The notes under the pieces were generated by a model that made no database searches, had not been told where the DNA came from, and worked only from the letters and a program-made list of their open reading frames with translations. From sequence record JN600960.1: 39,646 bases of DNA; one strand, 5' to 3'. A program made the translations under genes and the position numbers. This DNA comes from Enterobacteria phage IME10. This document shows, piece after piece, positions 11,389 to 18,764 of this stretch. Position 1 is the stretch's first letter; the number at the start of each line of letters is the position of its first letter.

Positions 11389-11409
11389 AAGGTGGCATTA
11401 TGCCACCTT
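11389..11409. terminator. Bidirectional intrinsic terminator hairpin between the convergent cargo gene and int
   Basis: Perfect inverted repeat AAGGTGGCA-TTA-TGCCACCTT followed by TT; overlaps the int stop codon. Confidence 0.5.
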
Positions 11410-12591
11410 TTCATCAAGCCAGTCCGCCCACCACTGCATCATTTCTCTGCGCTTATCGAGATACTGAGCATGGTTGTAAATCCCACGCACAGATCCGCCG
11501 TTGGCATGTGCCAGTTGCACTTCAATAGCGTCAGCAGGCCATTCGTGCTCGTTCATAATTGTGCTGAATTCATGCCTGAATCCGTGACCGCTTTCCAGAC
11601 CCTCATAGCCGATTTGTTTGATCACAAGCAATACTGCGTTCTCGCAGATTGGCTTCTTCTTATCGTTGCGCCCGGCAAAAACAAACTCTGATACTGGTTT
11701 AGTGATTGAGCTTAGTGTAGTGAGAAGTTCAACTACCTGGTCTGACATAGGAACCACATGAATTTTGCGTCCCTTCATCACACTGGCGTCAATGGTGATA
11801 ATCATGTTTTCAAAATCGACGTTCTTCCATTGCATGGAACGAAGCTCTTTTGTTCTGAGGGCTGTGTAGCGTAAAACTTTTGTCGCAATGAGCGATACGA
11901 TACTTCCTGAAAATGTTGCAAGTGCTTTGTTGAATGCCGGGATCTGGTCGGCAGGAAGAAACGGGAAGTTCTTCTTGCGGTATCCCTTCATGGCGTCAGC
12001 AAGGTCAGGTGCCGGGTTATATTTAGCCCTGCCGGTGACAATAGCGTAACGGAAAACCTCGCCGCATCTTCTGCGTGCTTTGTTGGCTCGCTCCATTGCA
12101 CCGCGATCTTCAAATCTGCGGATTACTTCCAGCAGTTGCATCGGCTCAATATCCAGAATCTCAAGGCCGCCGATGATAGGTAAAATGTCGTCATCAAACA
12201 TTTTTGCAAGTTCAGTCGCATACCCTACTGACCAGACTTGCTTCTTGTGCTCGTACCATTCCTTGTAAATCGCACTAAAGGAATTGTTGTTAGACGAAGC
12301 CTTTTTCGCTTTTACCGGATCGATGCCAACCGAGATGTCTTTCCTCGCGGTCCATGCTTTATCTCTTGCCTCCTGCAAAGTCATTAGCGGATATTTTCCT
12401 ACGGTCAGGATTTTCTCCTTACCGTCAATCTTGTAGCGAAGCTGCCATACCTTTTTCCCTGACACAGGGACATAAAGGTACAGGCCATTACCATCGAGTA
12501 GGCGGTATGGTTTTTCTTTCGGCTTTGCTGCTTCAATCTGCTTAACGGTGAGCATGGGTAAAAATCCGGTGGGTAAAATTATTTTATCCAC
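11398..12591 (-). CDS. int: Tyrosine integrase, P4-like (DUF4102-type N-terminal arm-binding domain)
   Basis: C-terminal catalytic motifs HGFRHEFST and GIYNHAQY; N-terminal LTVKQIEAAKPKEKPYRL; annotated start is GTG at 12591, a more likely ATG start (MLTVKQ) is at 12555. Confidence 0.9.
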   Translation of the reverse strand: MDKIILPTGFLPMLTVKQIEAAKPKEKPYRLLDGNGLYLYVPVSGKKVWQLRYKIDGKEKILTVGKYPLMTLQEARDKAWTARKDISVGIDPVKAKKASSNNNSFSAIYKEWYEHKKQVWSVGYATELAKMFDDDILPIIGGLEILDIEPMQLLEVIRRFEDRGAMERANKARRRCGEVFRYAIVTGRAKYNPAPDLADAMKGYRKKNFPFLPADQIPAFNKALATFSGSIVSLIATKVLRYTALRTKELRSMQWKNVDFENMIITIDASVMKGRKIHVVPMSDQVVELLTTLSSITKPVSEFVFAGRNDKKKPICENAVLLVIKQIGYEGLESGHGFRHEFSTIMNEHEWPADAIEVQLAHANGGSVRGIYNHAQYLDKRREMMQWWADWLDEKVA

Positions 12592-12790: not shown

Positions 12791-12810
12791 TTTTACCCGC
12801 TATTTTACCC
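12791..12810. repeat. Two direct TTTTACCC octamers, candidate arm-type sites
   Basis: TTTTACCC at 12791-12798 and 12803-12810, overlapping the xis stop. Confidence 0.35.
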
Positions 12811-13005
12811 ATTGGCGCGGCTTAAGAGCTTATTTTTGAATTCACAATGGTCACGATATAACCATCTTGCTCGCCCGTGGATAACTTTGGCTTTAGGCAG
12901 GTCCCCGGACTTAATCCGGTCATAGATGAAGGTTTTACCGAAGCCAGTATCGGCCATGATGAATTTCAAATCAACCAGTGAATCAGGCTGTAGTTCGTGT
13001 TGCAT
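12805..13005 (-). CDS. xis: AlpA-family excisionase / transcriptional regulator
   Basis: 66 aa; winged-HTH sequence DLKFIMADTGFGKTFIYDRIKSGDLPKAKV typical of AlpA/Xis partners of P4-type integrases. Confidence 0.75.
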   Translation of the reverse strand: MQHELQPDSLVDLKFIMADTGFGKTFIYDRIKSGDLPKAKVIHGRARWLYRDHCEFKNKLLSRANG

Positions 13006-13373: not shown

Positions 13374-13396
13374 CCCAAAAAAACCGCCATCAGGCG
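13374..13396 (-). terminator. Intrinsic terminator
   Basis: Minus strand CCGCC-TGAT-GGCGG followed by T7, immediately upstream of the 71-aa gene. Confidence 0.55.
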
Positions 13397-13504
13397 GCTT
13401 GGTGTTCTTTCATTTCTTCAATTCGAATATTGGTTACGTCTTATTCGATGCGCAATCCTGGTATTTCGCCTTTTGATATTGCTAAGTCATAAATTTGCGC
13501 AGCA

Positions 13505-13753
13505 CTATACCCATCTCGCATCCATGAATCTAAGGCGCGGAACAGTCTCGCTACGCTTTTTATCTTCTCTCTCATTTTTGATATCAACGAGGACATCAAC
13601 GCAATTAAGGCAAATGTGGATTTTGTCCTTACATTCAATCATGGCGGCTTTACCATGATTTCCGCCACACAGTGAGCATAAATCTTCAGGGTCTGGCTGG
13701 TATTTCTGTAACGTTAGAGGGTTGAATGTTGAACAGACCATAATCATCTCCAT
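13505..13753 (-). CDS. Hypothetical Cys-rich protein (zinc-ribbon-like CxxC pairs)
   Basis: 82 aa ORF with CSLCGG and CLNC motifs; weak RBS; overlaps alternative ORFs, so the start and reality are uncertain. Confidence 0.3.
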   Translation of the reverse strand: MEMIMVCSTFNPLTLQKYQPDPEDLCSLCGGNHGKAAMIECKDKIHICLNCVDVLVDIKNEREDKKRSETVPRLRFMDARWV

Positions 13754-13898
13754 AAAACAAAACCCGCCGTAGCGAGTTCAGATAAAAGAAATCCCCGCGA
13801 GTGCGAGGATTGTTATTGTCTTTTCTTCGTGCATTTGTCGCACTTTCGGCACCATCCAGATAGGCACATCCGTCCGCAATTAACACATATAGGCCACA

Positions 13899-14177
13899 TC
13901 ATTTTTCCTCTTTTGGTTTATGAATCTGAATGGTCATGCCGCTTTGAGTGGTGACTACAATGACAGAACCAGGCTGAAGGCTGTTAAGATTGAATGCTTC
14001 GTAAAACGAATCCAATGCCAGTGCTTTTTTATTCTTTCTGTTCCACCAACGCCACCCCTTGCTACAGGCTACACTGACAATCCACTGTCCACTCCTGTAA
14101 GCCATATAAAACCAGATGAGCAAAACCTGAAGGAAGGCAATCCAGTCAATAATCGTATATTTCGCGAAGGATTCCAT
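13899..14177 (-). CDS. Small membrane protein (92 aa)
   Basis: Start MESFAKY with AGGAGG RBS; hydrophobic segment IIDWIAFLQVLLIWFYMAY; 1-nt start/stop overlap with upstream gene. Confidence 0.55.
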   Translation of the reverse strand: MESFAKYTIIDWIAFLQVLLIWFYMAYRSGQWIVSVACSKGWRWWNRKNKKALALDSFYEAFNLNSLQPGSVIVVTTQSGMTIQIHKPKEEK

Positions 14178-14389
14178 CACTTCACCTCCTGCGCCGTTTT
14201 GATGATTGCTGCCAGACAATTCTTGCAAGGAACAAGCAGCGTTTCCTGCTCAATGCTCAATAGCGCATGCTGAGCATCCTGAAAAAGATATTCGAATGAA
14301 CCAGGCCGATGACCGCACCATGTCTCAATCTCGTGCTTAGGGAGTTTAACTCCCTCTCGATAGTCATATTTGATGATGTGCTTGCTCAC
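14177..14389 (-). CDS. Hypothetical protein (70 aa)
   Basis: ORF ending QEVK-stop with the RBS for the next gene embedded; translationally coupled. Confidence 0.5.
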   Translation of the reverse strand: MSKHIIKYDYREGVKLPKHEIETWCGHRPGSFEYLFQDAQHALLSIEQETLLVPCKNCLAAIIKTAQEVK

Positions 14390-14571
14390 GACTTCACCTC
14401 CTGTTGAGTAGAAACCTGATTTTTGAGTGATTCAGAAATATTCCTGCAATACCTAGCGGATTCATCGTCGAAAATGCTTTCGAAATACTCAGCAATCCAG
14501 CCGAACACAACAACCTGCTCATTGCTTGGATTTGCACTTTGATTGAAGGCGGTTATTAGTGATGCACTCAT
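14386..14571 (-). CDS. Hypothetical protein (61 aa)
   Basis: Start MSASLITAF preceded by AGGAGGTGAAGT; ends QEVKS-stop. Confidence 0.5.
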   Translation of the reverse strand: MSASLITAFNQSANPSNEQVVVFGWIAEYFESIFDDESARYCRNISESLKNQVSTQQEVKS

Positions 14572-14573
14572 AC

Positions 14574-15305
14574 TCACTTCACCTCCTGTTTTGGGGCTGC
14601 TGGAAGAGGCATCCAGTGGGTTATGATTACTTCGCGAGGATTGCAGTCGTCCTCTACTGGCTGCCACTCCGTCCATCCATTGGTTTTATGGACAAAGAAA
14701 TAAGCAGGAATGTAGTCTGGTTCATCTCCTTCAAAATATGTTCCCCAGCAAAGATACAAGCAATTGCTATCAGGCATTCGCTCACTACAGCTTATCCAAC
14801 TATCCGGAGTTCCCGGAGAGTTGCCATTCACAAGGTCAGCTCGAACATATAGCGTGTCATCATGGTGCTGATTGTGGCTGCACCACGTTAATTCGCTTAA
14901 CTCGCCATCTTCTGGCCATACTCCAGCTGTTTGCAGCCAGATATGGGATGGCGCATCTTGGCAAGGTGTATTAACTGGCAACTTGCAAGTTTGGCTTACA
15001 GGTTCGGCTTCCAGTTCTGCTATGCGCTTTTTTGCTGTTTCCAGCTCGCCCAGCAGCGCCAGCACGGTAGCTGTATTGGCTGCGGCGATGAATTCAGCAT
15101 TGGCCTGCTGTTCTATTTGGAAATCTTCATCGAAACCGCTTTCAGGATGCGCTCCTTCAATTCTGCAAATGGGAATATATCCAGCAACTTCACGATGAAT
15201 TAGCGCATCATCACCATCAAATCGGCTCTCTCCATATTCGAGCGACCATACACCACACGTTGCTTTTTCTGCCTTTTCACGCAGTGCCTGATAGTCAATT
15301 TTCAT
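14574..15305 (-). CDS. Ead/Ea22-like protein with C-terminal DUF551-like domain
   Basis: N-terminal DYQALREKAEKATCGVW...ELETAKKRIAELEA resembles Ead/Ea22; C-terminal WISCSERMPD...YFFVHKTNGWTEW resembles DUF551; ends QEVK-stop. Confidence 0.6.
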   Translation of the reverse strand: MKIDYQALREKAEKATCGVWSLEYGESRFDGDDALIHREVAGYIPICRIEGAHPESGFDEDFQIEQQANAEFIAAANTATVLALLGELETAKKRIAELEAEPVSQTCKLPVNTPCQDAPSHIWLQTAGVWPEDGELSELTWCSHNQHHDDTLYVRADLVNGNSPGTPDSWISCSERMPDSNCLYLCWGTYFEGDEPDYIPAYFFVHKTNGWTEWQPVEDDCNPREVIITHWMPLPAAPKQEVK

Positions 15306-15946
15306 ACTCGCCATCCTTCACAGTTGTAATCACGACATCCTTCAAAATCATATGGGTTGTACTGCCAGGTAATTTTTCCGCAATGCGGACAATTCCAGCG
15401 CACCTTACCGCTTCGCGACTTTTTTCTTCTGTTTTGTTTTTTCAACCAGTCAGGTATGACCAAACCTGCGCCCTGAACCATTGTTCTGCGGTTAAAATTA
15501 TTGATATTGAACGTCCGGCGCTTTGCTGCATCGGCAATGGAAAATGGCAACCAAACTATTCCTGGCTCGTTTTTGTTAGCGACGCTAAAGATGGTTGCTT
15601 TACTGAAGTCATCGGTTGGTAGCCCACCATGTTGAAGCCAGTAGACGTCGTTGCCGTTCCAGCTACCTTTTTTGTAGGCTACATACGCAGTGCAATCTGG
15701 CTCAATCAGGTTTTCTGTAGGGATGTACTGGCAATCAACGTGCCACACTGCCATTGTATCCACACTATCGGCACAAACAGGCTGATCTATATCTCGCCCA
15801 CAATTCCAGGCTTTTTGGGCTTCTTCCAGCGTGTAAACATGAGCGCGATCGATATCAGAACTGTAACCATTGCCGTTATGGCAATGGAATGAAGCGTTAT
15901 TACCCACAGTTTCACGCGAGCACATCATGTAAAAACGGTTACTCAC
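15302..15946 (-). CDS. Hypothetical protein with C-terminal zinc-ribbon (CPHCG...C..C)
   Basis: Frame open from GTG at 15946 (AGGAGG 6 nt upstream) or ATG at 15928; C-terminal RWNCPHCGKITWQYNPYDFEGCRDYNCEGW. Confidence 0.5.
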   Translation of the reverse strand: MSNRFYMMCSRETVGNNASFHCHNGNGYSSDIDRAHVYTLEEAQKAWNCGRDIDQPVCADSVDTMAVWHVDCQYIPTENLIEPDCTAYVAYKKGSWNGNDVYWLQHGGLPTDDFSKATIFSVANKNEPGIVWLPFSIADAAKRRTFNINNFNRRTMVQGAGLVIPDWLKKQNRRKKSRSGKVRWNCPHCGKITWQYNPYDFEGCRDYNCEGWRV

Positions 15947-16250
15947 TGGCTGCCTCCTTTGCTGGGCTTTCGAACTTCTGAGTGGTTGTATCAAACTCAA
16001 ACAACTTAACCACGTCATCAAACAGGACATAATCGCCATCAGAATCTTCAGTCATGTCAGCGCCACAATCCTGACCGAACGAGTCACAACCATCCATATC
16101 AAGCTCGTATCGCTTGAGTTTTGCGATATTTGATAAATTCAGCGCCAGTACAGCAAGGTCATAAACCTCTTCGACTGTATACCCTGCGCCATGCCCATAC
16201 ATTTCAATACGGGATATGATTTCTTCTACACGTTGCTTTGTTATTGCCAT
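15939..16250 (-). CDS. Hypothetical acidic protein (103 aa)
   Basis: ORF with GGGAGGTGAG RBS; overlapping start/stop with neighbours. Confidence 0.5.
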   Translation of the reverse strand: MAITKQRVEEIISRIEMYGHGAGYTVEEVYDLAVLALNLSNIAKLKRYELDMDGCDSFGQDCGADMTEDSDGDYVLFDDVVKLFEFDTTTQKFESPAKEAASE

Positions 16251-16612
16251 TTTTGCTCACCTCCCTGTTCTTCCAGAAAAATACGCATAGCCTCAAGCAT
16301 CTCTTCGGTGTCATACGGTGATAACTTGTCACGCAGGATGTGTTCAATGCTGTTAATGAACTTGCGGATTGCTTTGCGTTCAATTTCAGCCAGGACAGCG
16401 TCGGTGGTTGGAGTCCCTTCAACCTTCAGCCCTATAGGGGCCAGGTAATCCTTCAGCCCCGCATTCTCCGCAGCCAGCGCCGCGCATTTAGCTTCAAGTT
16501 CAGCAAATTTACGCACCAGATATTCAGTGTTTGTTTCGTTCACCTTTAAATCTCGTGGGATGCATTTACCTTTCAGAAATCCATCCATCTCAATTAGTGT
16601 CATTTGTTTCAT
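16241..16612 (-). CDS. Hypothetical protein (123 aa)
   Basis: ORF with RBS, coiled-coil-like ELEAKCAALAAENAGLK. Confidence 0.5.
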   Translation of the reverse strand: MKQMTLIEMDGFLKGKCIPRDLKVNETNTEYLVRKFAELEAKCAALAAENAGLKDYLAPIGLKVEGTPTTDAVLAEIERKAIRKFINSIEHILRDKLSPYDTEEMLEAMRIFLEEQGGEQKWQ

Positions 16613-16783: not shown

Positions 16784-17080
16784 TCAGTCATTACTGATAG
16801 CGCCATAACGTGAGCGGTAATTACGCAGGCGCGGGTCGATATATTCAGGGAAGTGGGTATATGTGGCTTTGCGGAATGGTCGGATTGATGTCTGGTAAAT
16901 TCGCTCGCGTTCTTCTTTCTCTGCAAGCCATATACAATGGCGAAATTCCTTTTCCTCTTTCGTTTCCTGCGGTAGCGACATTATCCGATCGTAGTTTTTT
17001 CTGAATTTATCCAGCACCTCCGATACGGAATTGCCGGAACAGCGGCGCGGGTCATCCGCACCATACAGAGGCGCTGGCAT
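16784..17080 (-). CDS. Hypothetical protein (98 aa)
   Basis: ORF with AGGAG RBS 7 nt upstream of ATG; stop of upstream HNH gene 10 nt away. Confidence 0.5.
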
Positions 17081-17582: not shown

Positions 17583-18056
17583 CTAGAACGGAATATCCGA
17601 ATCGTCGAAGTTCATAGGTGGTTCGCTGTGATTTCCATGCTGCTGAGGTTGCTGTCTTTGTTGATGACCGTTATTTCGCTGAGGTGAAGACTGTTCATTG
17701 CCTCCTTGCTTGCCACCAAGCATTTGCATGGTTCCACCAACGCCCACGATGACTTCGGTAGTGAACCTATCCTGTCCGCTTTGATCCTGCCATTTTCTTG
17801 TCCGCAATTTTCCTTCAAGATAAACCTCAGAGCCTTTTCGCAGATATTCGCTGGCAATTTCTGCCAGTTTCCCGCTCATTACCACGCGGTGCCACTCCGT
17901 CTGCTCCTTTTGCTCTCCAGTTTGCTTATCACGCCATTGTTCTGACGTAGCAACTGTAAGGTTTGCAAATGCCGTTCCTGATGGTGAATATCTGATTTCT
18001 GGATCATGCCCAAGGCGACCAATAATGATCACCTTATTTACGCCTCTGCTTGCCAT
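17583..18056 (-). CDS. ssb: Single-stranded DNA-binding protein
   Basis: OB-fold N-terminus ([18 protein letters not shown]), Gly/Gln-rich linker, acidic C-terminal tail DDSDIPF. Confidence 0.9.
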
Positions 18057-18764
18057 TTATGCCGCCTGTTTTAGCTCGTTAACTCTGATGTTCATTACCT
18101 GAACGCATTTAGCCTGCGCCTCCTCGTTGCCAGCCATTAATTGCCAGTCACGCTGATAACGCTCGATGAGTTTTTTCTTGTCAGTTTCTGTTGACGCATA
18201 ATCGCTGAAGTCTTTCAGGATTTGCTCGCAGTCAACCGATGGAGATTTCTGGTTGGTATTTTCTGGTGATGGTTTGTTATCTGATGCTGGGATTGCCCAT
18301 CCCGGCAGCGATGGAGGGAGCCAGTAAAATCCTGTTCCATCCTTGAGTTTTGCCCTGTGCCATCCCTGCTTTTTATCGAGAGATGTTTGTGCGAAACCTT
18401 CCTCAATGTTATACAGATACCGACCGATTCCCCACTGAACGGCAGCGCGCTTCATTGCACCGGAACGACCACCTTTGACGGCTTCTACCTGCGTGTTTTC
18501 AGCAGCATCCCATTTGGTTACCCATTCGGAATCAATCTTGATTGATATGCCGCATTCAACGCCGCCGTTGTTGGGAATATCGCGGTATTCATTGCGCCAT
18601 CCTGCTTTGCCACAAACATCGTCAAGGCGTTTCATGATTGCCCGGTTCGTGACATAAGCCAGCACCATAGCCCACACTTTGCCATCGCGTGTTTTACCGC
18701 TTTGCTGTATTCGCCATTCGATATCTTCAGGGCTGAATGGCTCATCGAATTTGTTCAAATCCAT
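18057..18764 (-). CDS. Rad52/Sak-family single-strand annealing protein
   Basis: N-terminal FSPEDIEWRIQ and GAMKRAAVQWGIGRYLY motif resemble Rad52-type annealases; occupies the Erf/Bet position next to ssb. Confidence 0.6.
   Translation of the reverse strand: MDLNKFDEPFSPEDIEWRIQQSGKTRDGKVWAMVLAYVTNRAIMKRLDDVCGKAGWRNEYRDIPNNGGVECGISIKIDSEWVTKWDAAENTQVEAVKGGRSGAMKRAAVQWGIGRYLYNIEEGFAQTSLDKKQGWHRAKLKDGTGFYWLPPSLPGWAIPASDNKPSPENTNQKSPSVDCEQILKDFSDYASTETDKKKLIERYQRDWQLMAGNEEAQAKCVQVMNIRVNELKQAA

Follow-up and report, generated by a model that had tools for sequence, protein, structure and literature searches.

The 39,646-nucleotide (nt) genome of Enterobacteria phage IME10 (JN600960.1), the whole of which is called the window here, carries a 14-base repeat at three consecutive gene junctions. 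Each copy encodes the last residues of one gene and contains the Shine-Dalgarno (SD) sequence of the next. The repeat is probably a portable gene junction, or linker, of the accessory early-left region in enterobacterial lambdoid prophages, and would serve both the expression and the exchange of small genes. This reading is based on the positions at which homology to related prophages breaks and on the many unrelated genes that the same sequence joins. All coordinates are window positions, and the genes and junction copies are read on the minus strand. The four consecutive genes are designated gA (14574-15314), gB (14386-14571), gC (14177-14389) and gD (13899-14177).

Junction repeat and reading frames

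Copy 1 (14575-14588) and copy 3 (14178-14191) are exact matches to CAGGAGGTGAAGTG, and copy 2 (14390-14403; CAGGAGGTGAAGTC) matches at 13 of 14 positions. Minus-strand reading and a mismatch search thus confirmed the repeat as an earlier note on this DNA had placed it. No further site with two or fewer mismatches was found on either strand of the whole window. In 100 dinucleotide-preserving shuffles, the mean number of matches was 0.17 and three were never reached. Identity among the three copies is limited to the 14 bases. A longer tail, CCAGCAGCCCCAAAA (14589-14603), precedes copy 1 only; it codes for PAAPK, is of a type common to many related prophages, and shares 11 of 15 bases with the widespread consensus CCAGCAGCACCGCAG (PAAPQ).

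Copy 1 supplies QEVK and the stop codon of gA (TGA at 14576-14574), whose C-terminus reads ...HWMPLPAAPKQEVK-TGA (PKQEVK), and copy 3 supplies those of gC (...IIKTAQEVK-TGA; TGA at 14179-14177). The earlier note assigned the same QEVK-stop to all three genes, which holds for gA and gC but not for gB, as copy 2 encodes an additional serine in the latter (...VSTQQEVKS-TGA; TGA at 14388-14386). Its statement that each copy holds the SD of the next gene was correct: the 9-nt AGGAGGTGA precedes the starts of gB, gC and gD, and occurs in the 39.6-kb window at these three junctions only. AGGAGGTGA is the full 9-nt complement of the 3′ tail of 16S rRNA. At gene starts called elsewhere in the window, the SD match was never longer than 7 nt; this comparison was the sole use of a crude open reading frame (ORF) caller, which set the starts of gB to gD wrongly.

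Stop and start codons are in close contact at all three junctions. Served by copy 1, gB starts with ATG at 14571, 2 nt past the gA stop. The GTG start of gC at 14389 forms a GTGA overlap with the gB stop and uses the SD of copy 2, and the ATG of gD at 14177 forms a TGATG overlap with the gC stop and uses that of copy 3. The distance from the SD core GGAGG to the start codon is 7 nt for gC and gD and 10 nt for gB. The conserved ATG was taken as the gB start because the alternative GTG is lost in two related loci, L157 and L212. There, a mutation has turned the stop codon TGA of the gA-type gene into TTA, the ORF is two codons longer (QEVKLV), and the new TGA overlaps the gB ATG, which shows that the junction tolerates drift while the stop/start contact stays.

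Compared with shuffled controls, the RNA around the three junctions showed no excess of structure (z = − 0.36, + 1.26 and + 1.13), and no structure masking the SD was found at any of the copies; the SDs are thus unmasked. No promoter-like site was found on the gene strand between 12800 and 16700, the sole match being on the plus strand (16006-16033), and terminator-like hairpins on the gene strand occur downstream of gD only, from 13811 downward. Judged from this anatomy, translational coupling across the junctions is plausible. Frameshifting or recoding at the SD-stop was set aside from the sequence alone, because AAG-UGA offers no re-pairing codon in + 1 or − 1 and the downstream ORFs have their own starts.

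Genes joined by the repeat

gA encodes a protein of 246 amino acids (aa) with an Ead/Ea22-like N-terminal domain and a C-terminal DUF551 domain (PF13935 at 2.8e-19, PF04448 at 1.7e-13; phrog_60). gB, between copies 1 and 2, encodes 61 aa (phrog_23654, function unknown). Its AlphaFold2 (AF2) model is a three-helix bundle with a pLDDT of 76.7. gC, between copies 2 and 3, encodes 70 aa (phrog_4090, function unknown) and is modelled with beta strands and two helices (pLDDT 89.8); no similar chain was found for this predicted fold in the PDB. An alignment of the gC family has invariant W24-C25-G26, H41 and P54-C55 and a nearly invariant C58, and these residues suggest a small Cys3-His metal site. 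gD, served by copy 3, encodes a 92-aa DUF4752 protein (PF15944 at 2.4e-36).

Distribution of the motif and its gene partners

A scan of IMG/VR for the exact 14-mer gave at least 120 contigs. Among the matches listed, ATG nearly always follows the motif in enterobacterial prophages, and frequent 5′ extensions are CCAGCAGCACCGCAG (PAAPQ), GCAGCCGCCCCG (AAAP) and CCGGAACCGCCG (PEPP). Polymorphic positions of the motif are 7 (G/A), 9 (G/T) and 12 (G/T). Hundreds of the sequenced prophages from E. coli and Salmonella carry the motif, among them Stx phages. The version of about 32 bases, CCAGCAGCACCGCAG-CAGGAGGTGAAGTGATG, was present exactly in 153 of 5426 complete E. coli genomes, where the PGAP calls on its two sides were DUF551 and DUF4752, or dATP/dGTP pyrophosphohydrolase and DUF4752.

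The genes on both sides of the motif are varied. Among the upstream proteins bearing the tail are DUF551 proteins, a protein of 372 aa that contains a dATP/dGTP pyrophosphohydrolase domain, a Lar restriction-alleviation protein, a DUF1627 protein and several others without a Pfam match. When the flanks were clustered at the DNA level, 249 occurrences fell into 89 x 84 families, with 11 upstream families for gD. Protein-level clustering of the 182 junction-type occurrences gave 22 upstream and 41 downstream families. The Ea22-type family was upstream in 144 of the 182 and was followed by 25 different downstream families; gD had 4 upstream families at this level. The motif therefore has many partners on each side.

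The motif is not general among P22-like genomes: P22, HK620 and lambda contain no copy of it, even when 4 substitutions are allowed. Phage Gally has one copy, with gD directly behind a DUF551 gene. A comparison of gene boundaries in P22-like genomes, as the earlier note had suggested, is therefore possible only with newer prophage data, in which the junction is found.

Homology breakpoints

A 17-mer located within gD, rather than the motif, was used to gather 110 IMG/VR loci for alignment with the window. Of the 105 homology blocks covering gD, 96 start at the 5′ edge of copy 3 (14192-14200), three at the edge of copy 2 (14405; block starts near this edge fall at 14403-14405), two at 14602, which corresponds to copy 1 together with its extension, and two at positions farther upstream. 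Complete E. coli genomes, an independent collection, behaved similarly: 562 of the 5426 matched 13850-14650, just 11 had the whole arrangement, and 27 of 30 evenly spaced rows began at the copy 3 edge and 1 at the copy 2 edge. A prophage with three copies is present, for example, in E. coli GF66.2. Matches in an initial phage search began at 14192 and 14602, the latter in mEp213 and mEp043.

Small genes are present, absent or replaced between these breakpoints. Directly upstream of gC lies gB, a DUF551 tail (L072, L204, L218 and L229) or, in L117, another gene; upstream of gB lies a DUF551 tail or a "...ESMLAAAPQ" tail (L181 and L201), and upstream of gD either gC or, directly, a DUF551 gene. 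The gene following gC is gD, but a different one in L117, where gC (14403 to 14173) is all that the locus has in common with the window and neither neighbour is the same. The arrangements that exist in nature, gA-type/gD, gA-type/gC/gD, gA-type/gB/gC/gD and gC-other, are all bounded by copies, and the repeats bound insertions, deletions and replacements of the small accessory ORFs gB and gC.

The bases on the 3′ side of the junction always track the downstream gene (GAGTATG with gB, CGTG with gC and GATG with gD), and those on the 5′ side track the upstream gene. In related loci, the 3′ context of copy 1, AAGTGAGTATG, is kept with gB whatever gene lies upstream, and AAGTCGTG of copy 2 is kept with gC behind a DUF551 gene or another gene. 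Since the 3′ bases travel with the downstream gene, a DUF551 gene joined to gC ends in QEVKS. The segregation of 3′ and 5′ bases with their respective genes places the putative exchange point in or just before the shared CAGGAGGTGAAGT.

The earlier note had proposed that such boundary sequences act as linkers for modular exchange. The breakpoints at the copies, the many unrelated partners and the copy-bounded cassettes agree with this proposal, and we infer from them that crossovers were guided by homology of the motif.

Proposed role in expression and exchange

In the reading that we favour, the junction would have two roles. For expression, 13-17 bases would pack the last four codons and the stop of the upstream ORF together with a maximal SD, so that a ribosome ending one ORF would be handed to the next and any ORF behind the junction would be expressed. 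This hand-over is proposed because the SD core is close to a start codon that overlaps or abuts the stop; translation would then be coupled across the junctions. For exchange, recombination between copies would replace, insert or delete whole ORFs in register. Its substrate would be the common core, sometimes extended to about 32 bases, at many junctions. gB and gC would be cassettes between the three copies, inserted after the Ea22/DUF551 gene and before the DUF4752 gene.

The exchange could be carried out by the phage Rad52-type annealing protein, by RecA acting on the longer versions, or through replication slippage. Phage Rad52-like proteins recombine short or diverged homologies and thereby drive mosaic formation in lambdoid phages (PMC3945230). 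The Rad52/22-family protein encoded at 18057-18764 in the window is a plausible candidate and may be the catalyst at short homologies.

Several observations weigh against this reading. The minimal segment for efficient pairing is 23-27 bp for Red-beta and 31-34 bp for RecA (PMC3945230), and the common core of copies 2 and 3 is only 13-14 bases. Because only the versions of about 32 nt reach these minima, exchange at the bare core should be rare. The perfect SD and the TGATG overlap account for 14 of the 17 bases of CAGGAGGTGAAGTGATG, much of which could thus persist through purifying selection on expression. The breakpoints are not independent, since many represent the same ancestral DUF551-gD arrangement; many of the 96 probably descend from few such ancestral events, and the counts of partner families are the better measure. 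Junctions without the motif are breakpoints of homology as well, for example at 13905 at the 3′ end of gD, and the linker is therefore not required for mosaicism. Finally, copies inside one genome can differ, as in L157 and L212, which argues against frequent homogenisation.

Alternative explanations

The repeat could be an expression signal only. An optimal coupling junction would have been retained or reached by convergence, and breakpoints would be found there because genes end there. We judge this alternative unlikely. It explains the perfect anti-SD complementarity of AGGAGGTGA, the 14 of 17 bases assigned to the SD and TGATG, and the breakpoints at motif-less junctions. The occurrence of the exact 17-mer in unrelated phyla also fits. 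When the 17-mer was sought in 185,579 species genomes, there were at least 120 matches, in arbitrary order, with about 70 expected by chance in 596 Gb; those listed were mostly from unrelated phyla, and the scan was uninformative.

As a control for this explanation, DUF551 3′ ends were selected by the THWMP codons alone. These genes have dozens of endings, for example PEPPKEET, PAAPEGGK and PSPPKEQE, most of which embed GGAGG for the next gene, and QEVK-stop was found in 7 of about 92. AAGGAGGAAACATGA is another form of the DUF551 tail with an SD and stop/start. The same architecture is built from other sequences elsewhere in the operon, namely AAAGAGGAAAAATGATG at 13899-13902, AAAGGAGGCAGCCAGTGAGTAA at about 15941 and GGAGGTGAGCAAAAATG at 16250-16264. 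Selection for a coupled junction with the SD in the tail is thus real and old, and its generality among DUF551 genes and other operon junctions suits the expression-only explanation. However, because other DUF551 tails embed the SD in dozens of ways, the sequence of the repeat is not forced by this function. The identical core is found on unrelated proteins, often with the 15-base PAAPQ extension that has no SD role, and it precedes at least 25 downstream families. The recurrence of one 14-32-mer between unrelated genes requires copying, not convergence.

The origin of phage mosaicism at gene boundaries has been debated for decades between homologous exchange at short linkers and illegitimate joints followed by selection (PMC3233612). 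Under the second, or Hendrix, model, the motif would be the conserved 3′ end of Ea22/DUF551-type genes, and random joints right after it would survive since both genes stay intact. The predominance of the Ea22-type gene upstream (144 of 182) is expected under this model, as are the mosaic breakpoints that are frequent in the region, including those within gA at 14832-14770 and 15047-14970. We nevertheless consider it distinctly improbable. Random joints predict a different junction sequence each time, which is not what was found. The model also leaves unexplained why the motif ends gB, gC and the Lar, DUF1627 and dATP/dGTP pyrophosphohydrolase proteins, and why gC moves as a unit with a copy at each end (L117).

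Alternatively, the conserved element could be the peptide, with (PAAPQ)QEVK acting as a C-terminal tag for degradation, localisation or partner binding. A tail of up to about nine residues does recur on many proteins. However, its residues change freely. The tails at junctions before gD include QEVN, QEMK, QEAK and QEGK, and the C-termini of gC homologues are QEVK, QEVNRG, QGVR, KGV, EAKQ or ...DDSEGGCRE, while the first six bases of the motif, CAGGAG, are nearly invariant. In the window itself, the middle copy adds a serine after the supposed tag, and the AF2 model of gB is least confident at residues 51-61, which include the tail. This variation among homologues and junctions makes a peptide function very unlikely; the QEVK(S) tail is not part of the proteins proper and would be a by-product of the junction.

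Tandem duplication, the other origin raised in the earlier note, would make the three genes diverged paralogues with retained 3′ ends, and it can be dismissed with near certainty: beyond the common 14 bases, the four proteins belong to different Pfam/PHROG families, all-against-all BLASTP detected similarity in the 4-5 residue tail only, hhalign of 24 gC against 13 gB homologues gave a probability of 0.44% with only the last 12 residues aligned, the predicted folds of gB (three helices) and gC (beta strands and two helices) are unlike, and the lengths differ (246, 61 and 70 aa). The alignment and structure prediction that the note had proposed for this purpose thus detected no relationship beyond the tail.

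Organization of the operon and other breakpoints

The source genome is that of a whole Sf6/P22-like (Lederbergvirus-type) E. coli phage, and the four genes are located in the leftward early operon, in the accessory "ea" or exo-xis region. The same operon includes the Rad52/22-family single-strand annealing protein (18057-18764, minus strand; PF04098 at 1.5e-25), SSB (17583-18056) and Abc2 (16784-17080). int, encoding phage Int, is located at 11398-12591, on the far side of gA-gD from the recombination genes. A small ORF at 12805-13005 is probably xis, with no Pfam match.

An unlisted Cys-rich ORF of 29 aa, MMWPICVNCGRMCLSGWCRKCDKCTKKRQ, was found at 13813-13902 on the minus strand, with an ATGA overlap with the gD stop. 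It is below the 30-aa ORF cut-off, is conserved behind gD in 41 loci, and has the look of a zinc-ribbon micro-protein. Terminator-like hairpins lie directly 3′ of it, at 13811-13790 and 13779-13760. In the loci L121-L230, most gD homologues are followed not by this small ORF but by a gene starting GTG-GCT-AAC-CTG (VANLQLAVKGEYFD...). The junction between gD and this gene is a different SD-bearing sequence, AAGGAGGAAGGTCGTG, equivalent to about 13905 in the window, and the same gene family is directly behind the QEVK motif in L088.

Upstream of gA, the ORF of 245 aa at 15302-16039 (minus strand) is probably annotated with the wrong start, the true product being about 214 aa. Its PHROG match begins at residue 32, where GTG is found at 15946-15944. 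AGGAGG is located 6 nt upstream of this GTG, within the tail of the preceding gene (...AKEAASE-TAA), with a GTGAGTAA overlap. The junction GGAGGTGAGCAAAAATG, which precedes the 103-aa gene at 15939-16250, is also a breakpoint: L035 and L072 have the SD, start and 103-aa gene in common and differ in the upstream genes. This suggests that crossover at or just before the SD is a general habit of the operon.

Breakpoints are also found inside gA and at its start. Patches of 50-80 nt at 14770-14832, 14970-15047 and about 15300 are common to many prophages that differ in the rest of gA. Block ends pile up at the domain boundaries of the Ea22/DUF551 gene, with 57-65 ends per 10-nt bin. These pile-ups suggest shuffling at the domain level and possibly further linkers. 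Short conserved islands at 13743-13817, 13378-13441 and 16450-16500 are present in dozens of loci with non-homologous flanks. The first contains the terminator-like hairpins.

Comparison with known systems

In the literature searched, Clark et al. 2001 (HK620) excepted, neither the motif nor the peptide was found in a phage context; the linker concept itself is already known. Seven boundary sequences are reportedly treated in that study of HK620 (J Mol Biol 311:657). The motif is unlikely to be one of those published sequences, because it is absent from HK620, P22 and lambda even at a tolerance of 4 substitutions. It resembles the boundary or linker sequences of lambdoid phages in being short, conserved and located at gene boundaries of the non-structural half of the genome, with alternative non-homologous flanking genes and a proposed role as a focus of homologous recombination. 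Unlike them, it is intragenic, translational and very short, doubles as an SD with stop/start, and separates single small ORFs rather than modules.

The PeSL (promoter-early stem-loop) mobile regulatory cassettes of T4-type phages are comparable: in a hyperplastic region, small accessory ORFs have a repeated expression signal on their flanks (Arbiol et al. 2010, PMC2839356). PeSL repeats likewise bound insertions, deletions and replacements, and recombination between repeats has been proposed (PMC2839356). However, PeSLs are intergenic and transcriptional, consisting of a sigma-70 promoter and a terminator hairpin, and mini-circles were shown for them (PMC2839356). The motif described here is translational, lies in the tail of an ORF, is much shorter, and has no hairpin or promoter at its copies.

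The start-associated sequences (SAS) of Cluster K mycobacteriophages are similar in another way. They are conserved asymmetric motifs of about 13 bp with an SD core, a few bases before the starts of genes of varied families (Pope et al. 2011, PMC3203893). They are confined to the non-structural region, all have one orientation, and in some cases include the upstream stop codon (PMC3203893). The SAS consensus GGGATAGGAGCCC (PMC3203893), the host and the phage group all differ, and the resemblance is one of kind only. The published discussion treats SAS as signals of translation rather than as mosaic breakpoints, and 93 sites were counted in total across genomes (PMC3203893); the motif has three copies per genome, in contrast to the many more SAS sites in Cluster K genomes.

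All three junctions have the features of ordinary coupled operon junctions, with the SD in the upstream ORF and ATGA, TGATG or GTGA overlaps. Ordinary junctions are specific to their genes, whereas here one sequence is reused between unrelated pairs, within a genome and across hundreds of genomes. Integron attC sites are imperfect inverted repeats that form hairpins and are served by a dedicated integron integrase; unlike them, the copies have no structure, and the sole integrase is phage Int (11398-12591).

Significance

For annotation, the QEVK tail together with the strong SD fixes the start codons of several small hypothetical genes. For the study of mosaicism, convincing linkers are few, and this junction is a clean case, being short and mutable without altering the gene bodies. 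Since "empty", one-cassette and two-cassette states are all found in nature, the linker model could be tested directly.

A broader possibility, which we offer tentatively and hold to be less likely than not, is that SD-embedded junctions form a homology-guided cassette system for accessory genes of enterobacterial lambdoid prophages, an "integron without an integrase", in which the linker of about 14-32 nt is the preferred crossover for phage annealing proteins. If so, any ORF that acquires the linker would become a plug-in cassette, expressed wherever it lands, and the linker would be kept partly because it makes the region evolvable. The junction would then provide a concrete and experimentally tractable case for the long-disputed linker model, which derives from the modular theory of Susskind and Botstein (1978, as cited in PMC3233612).

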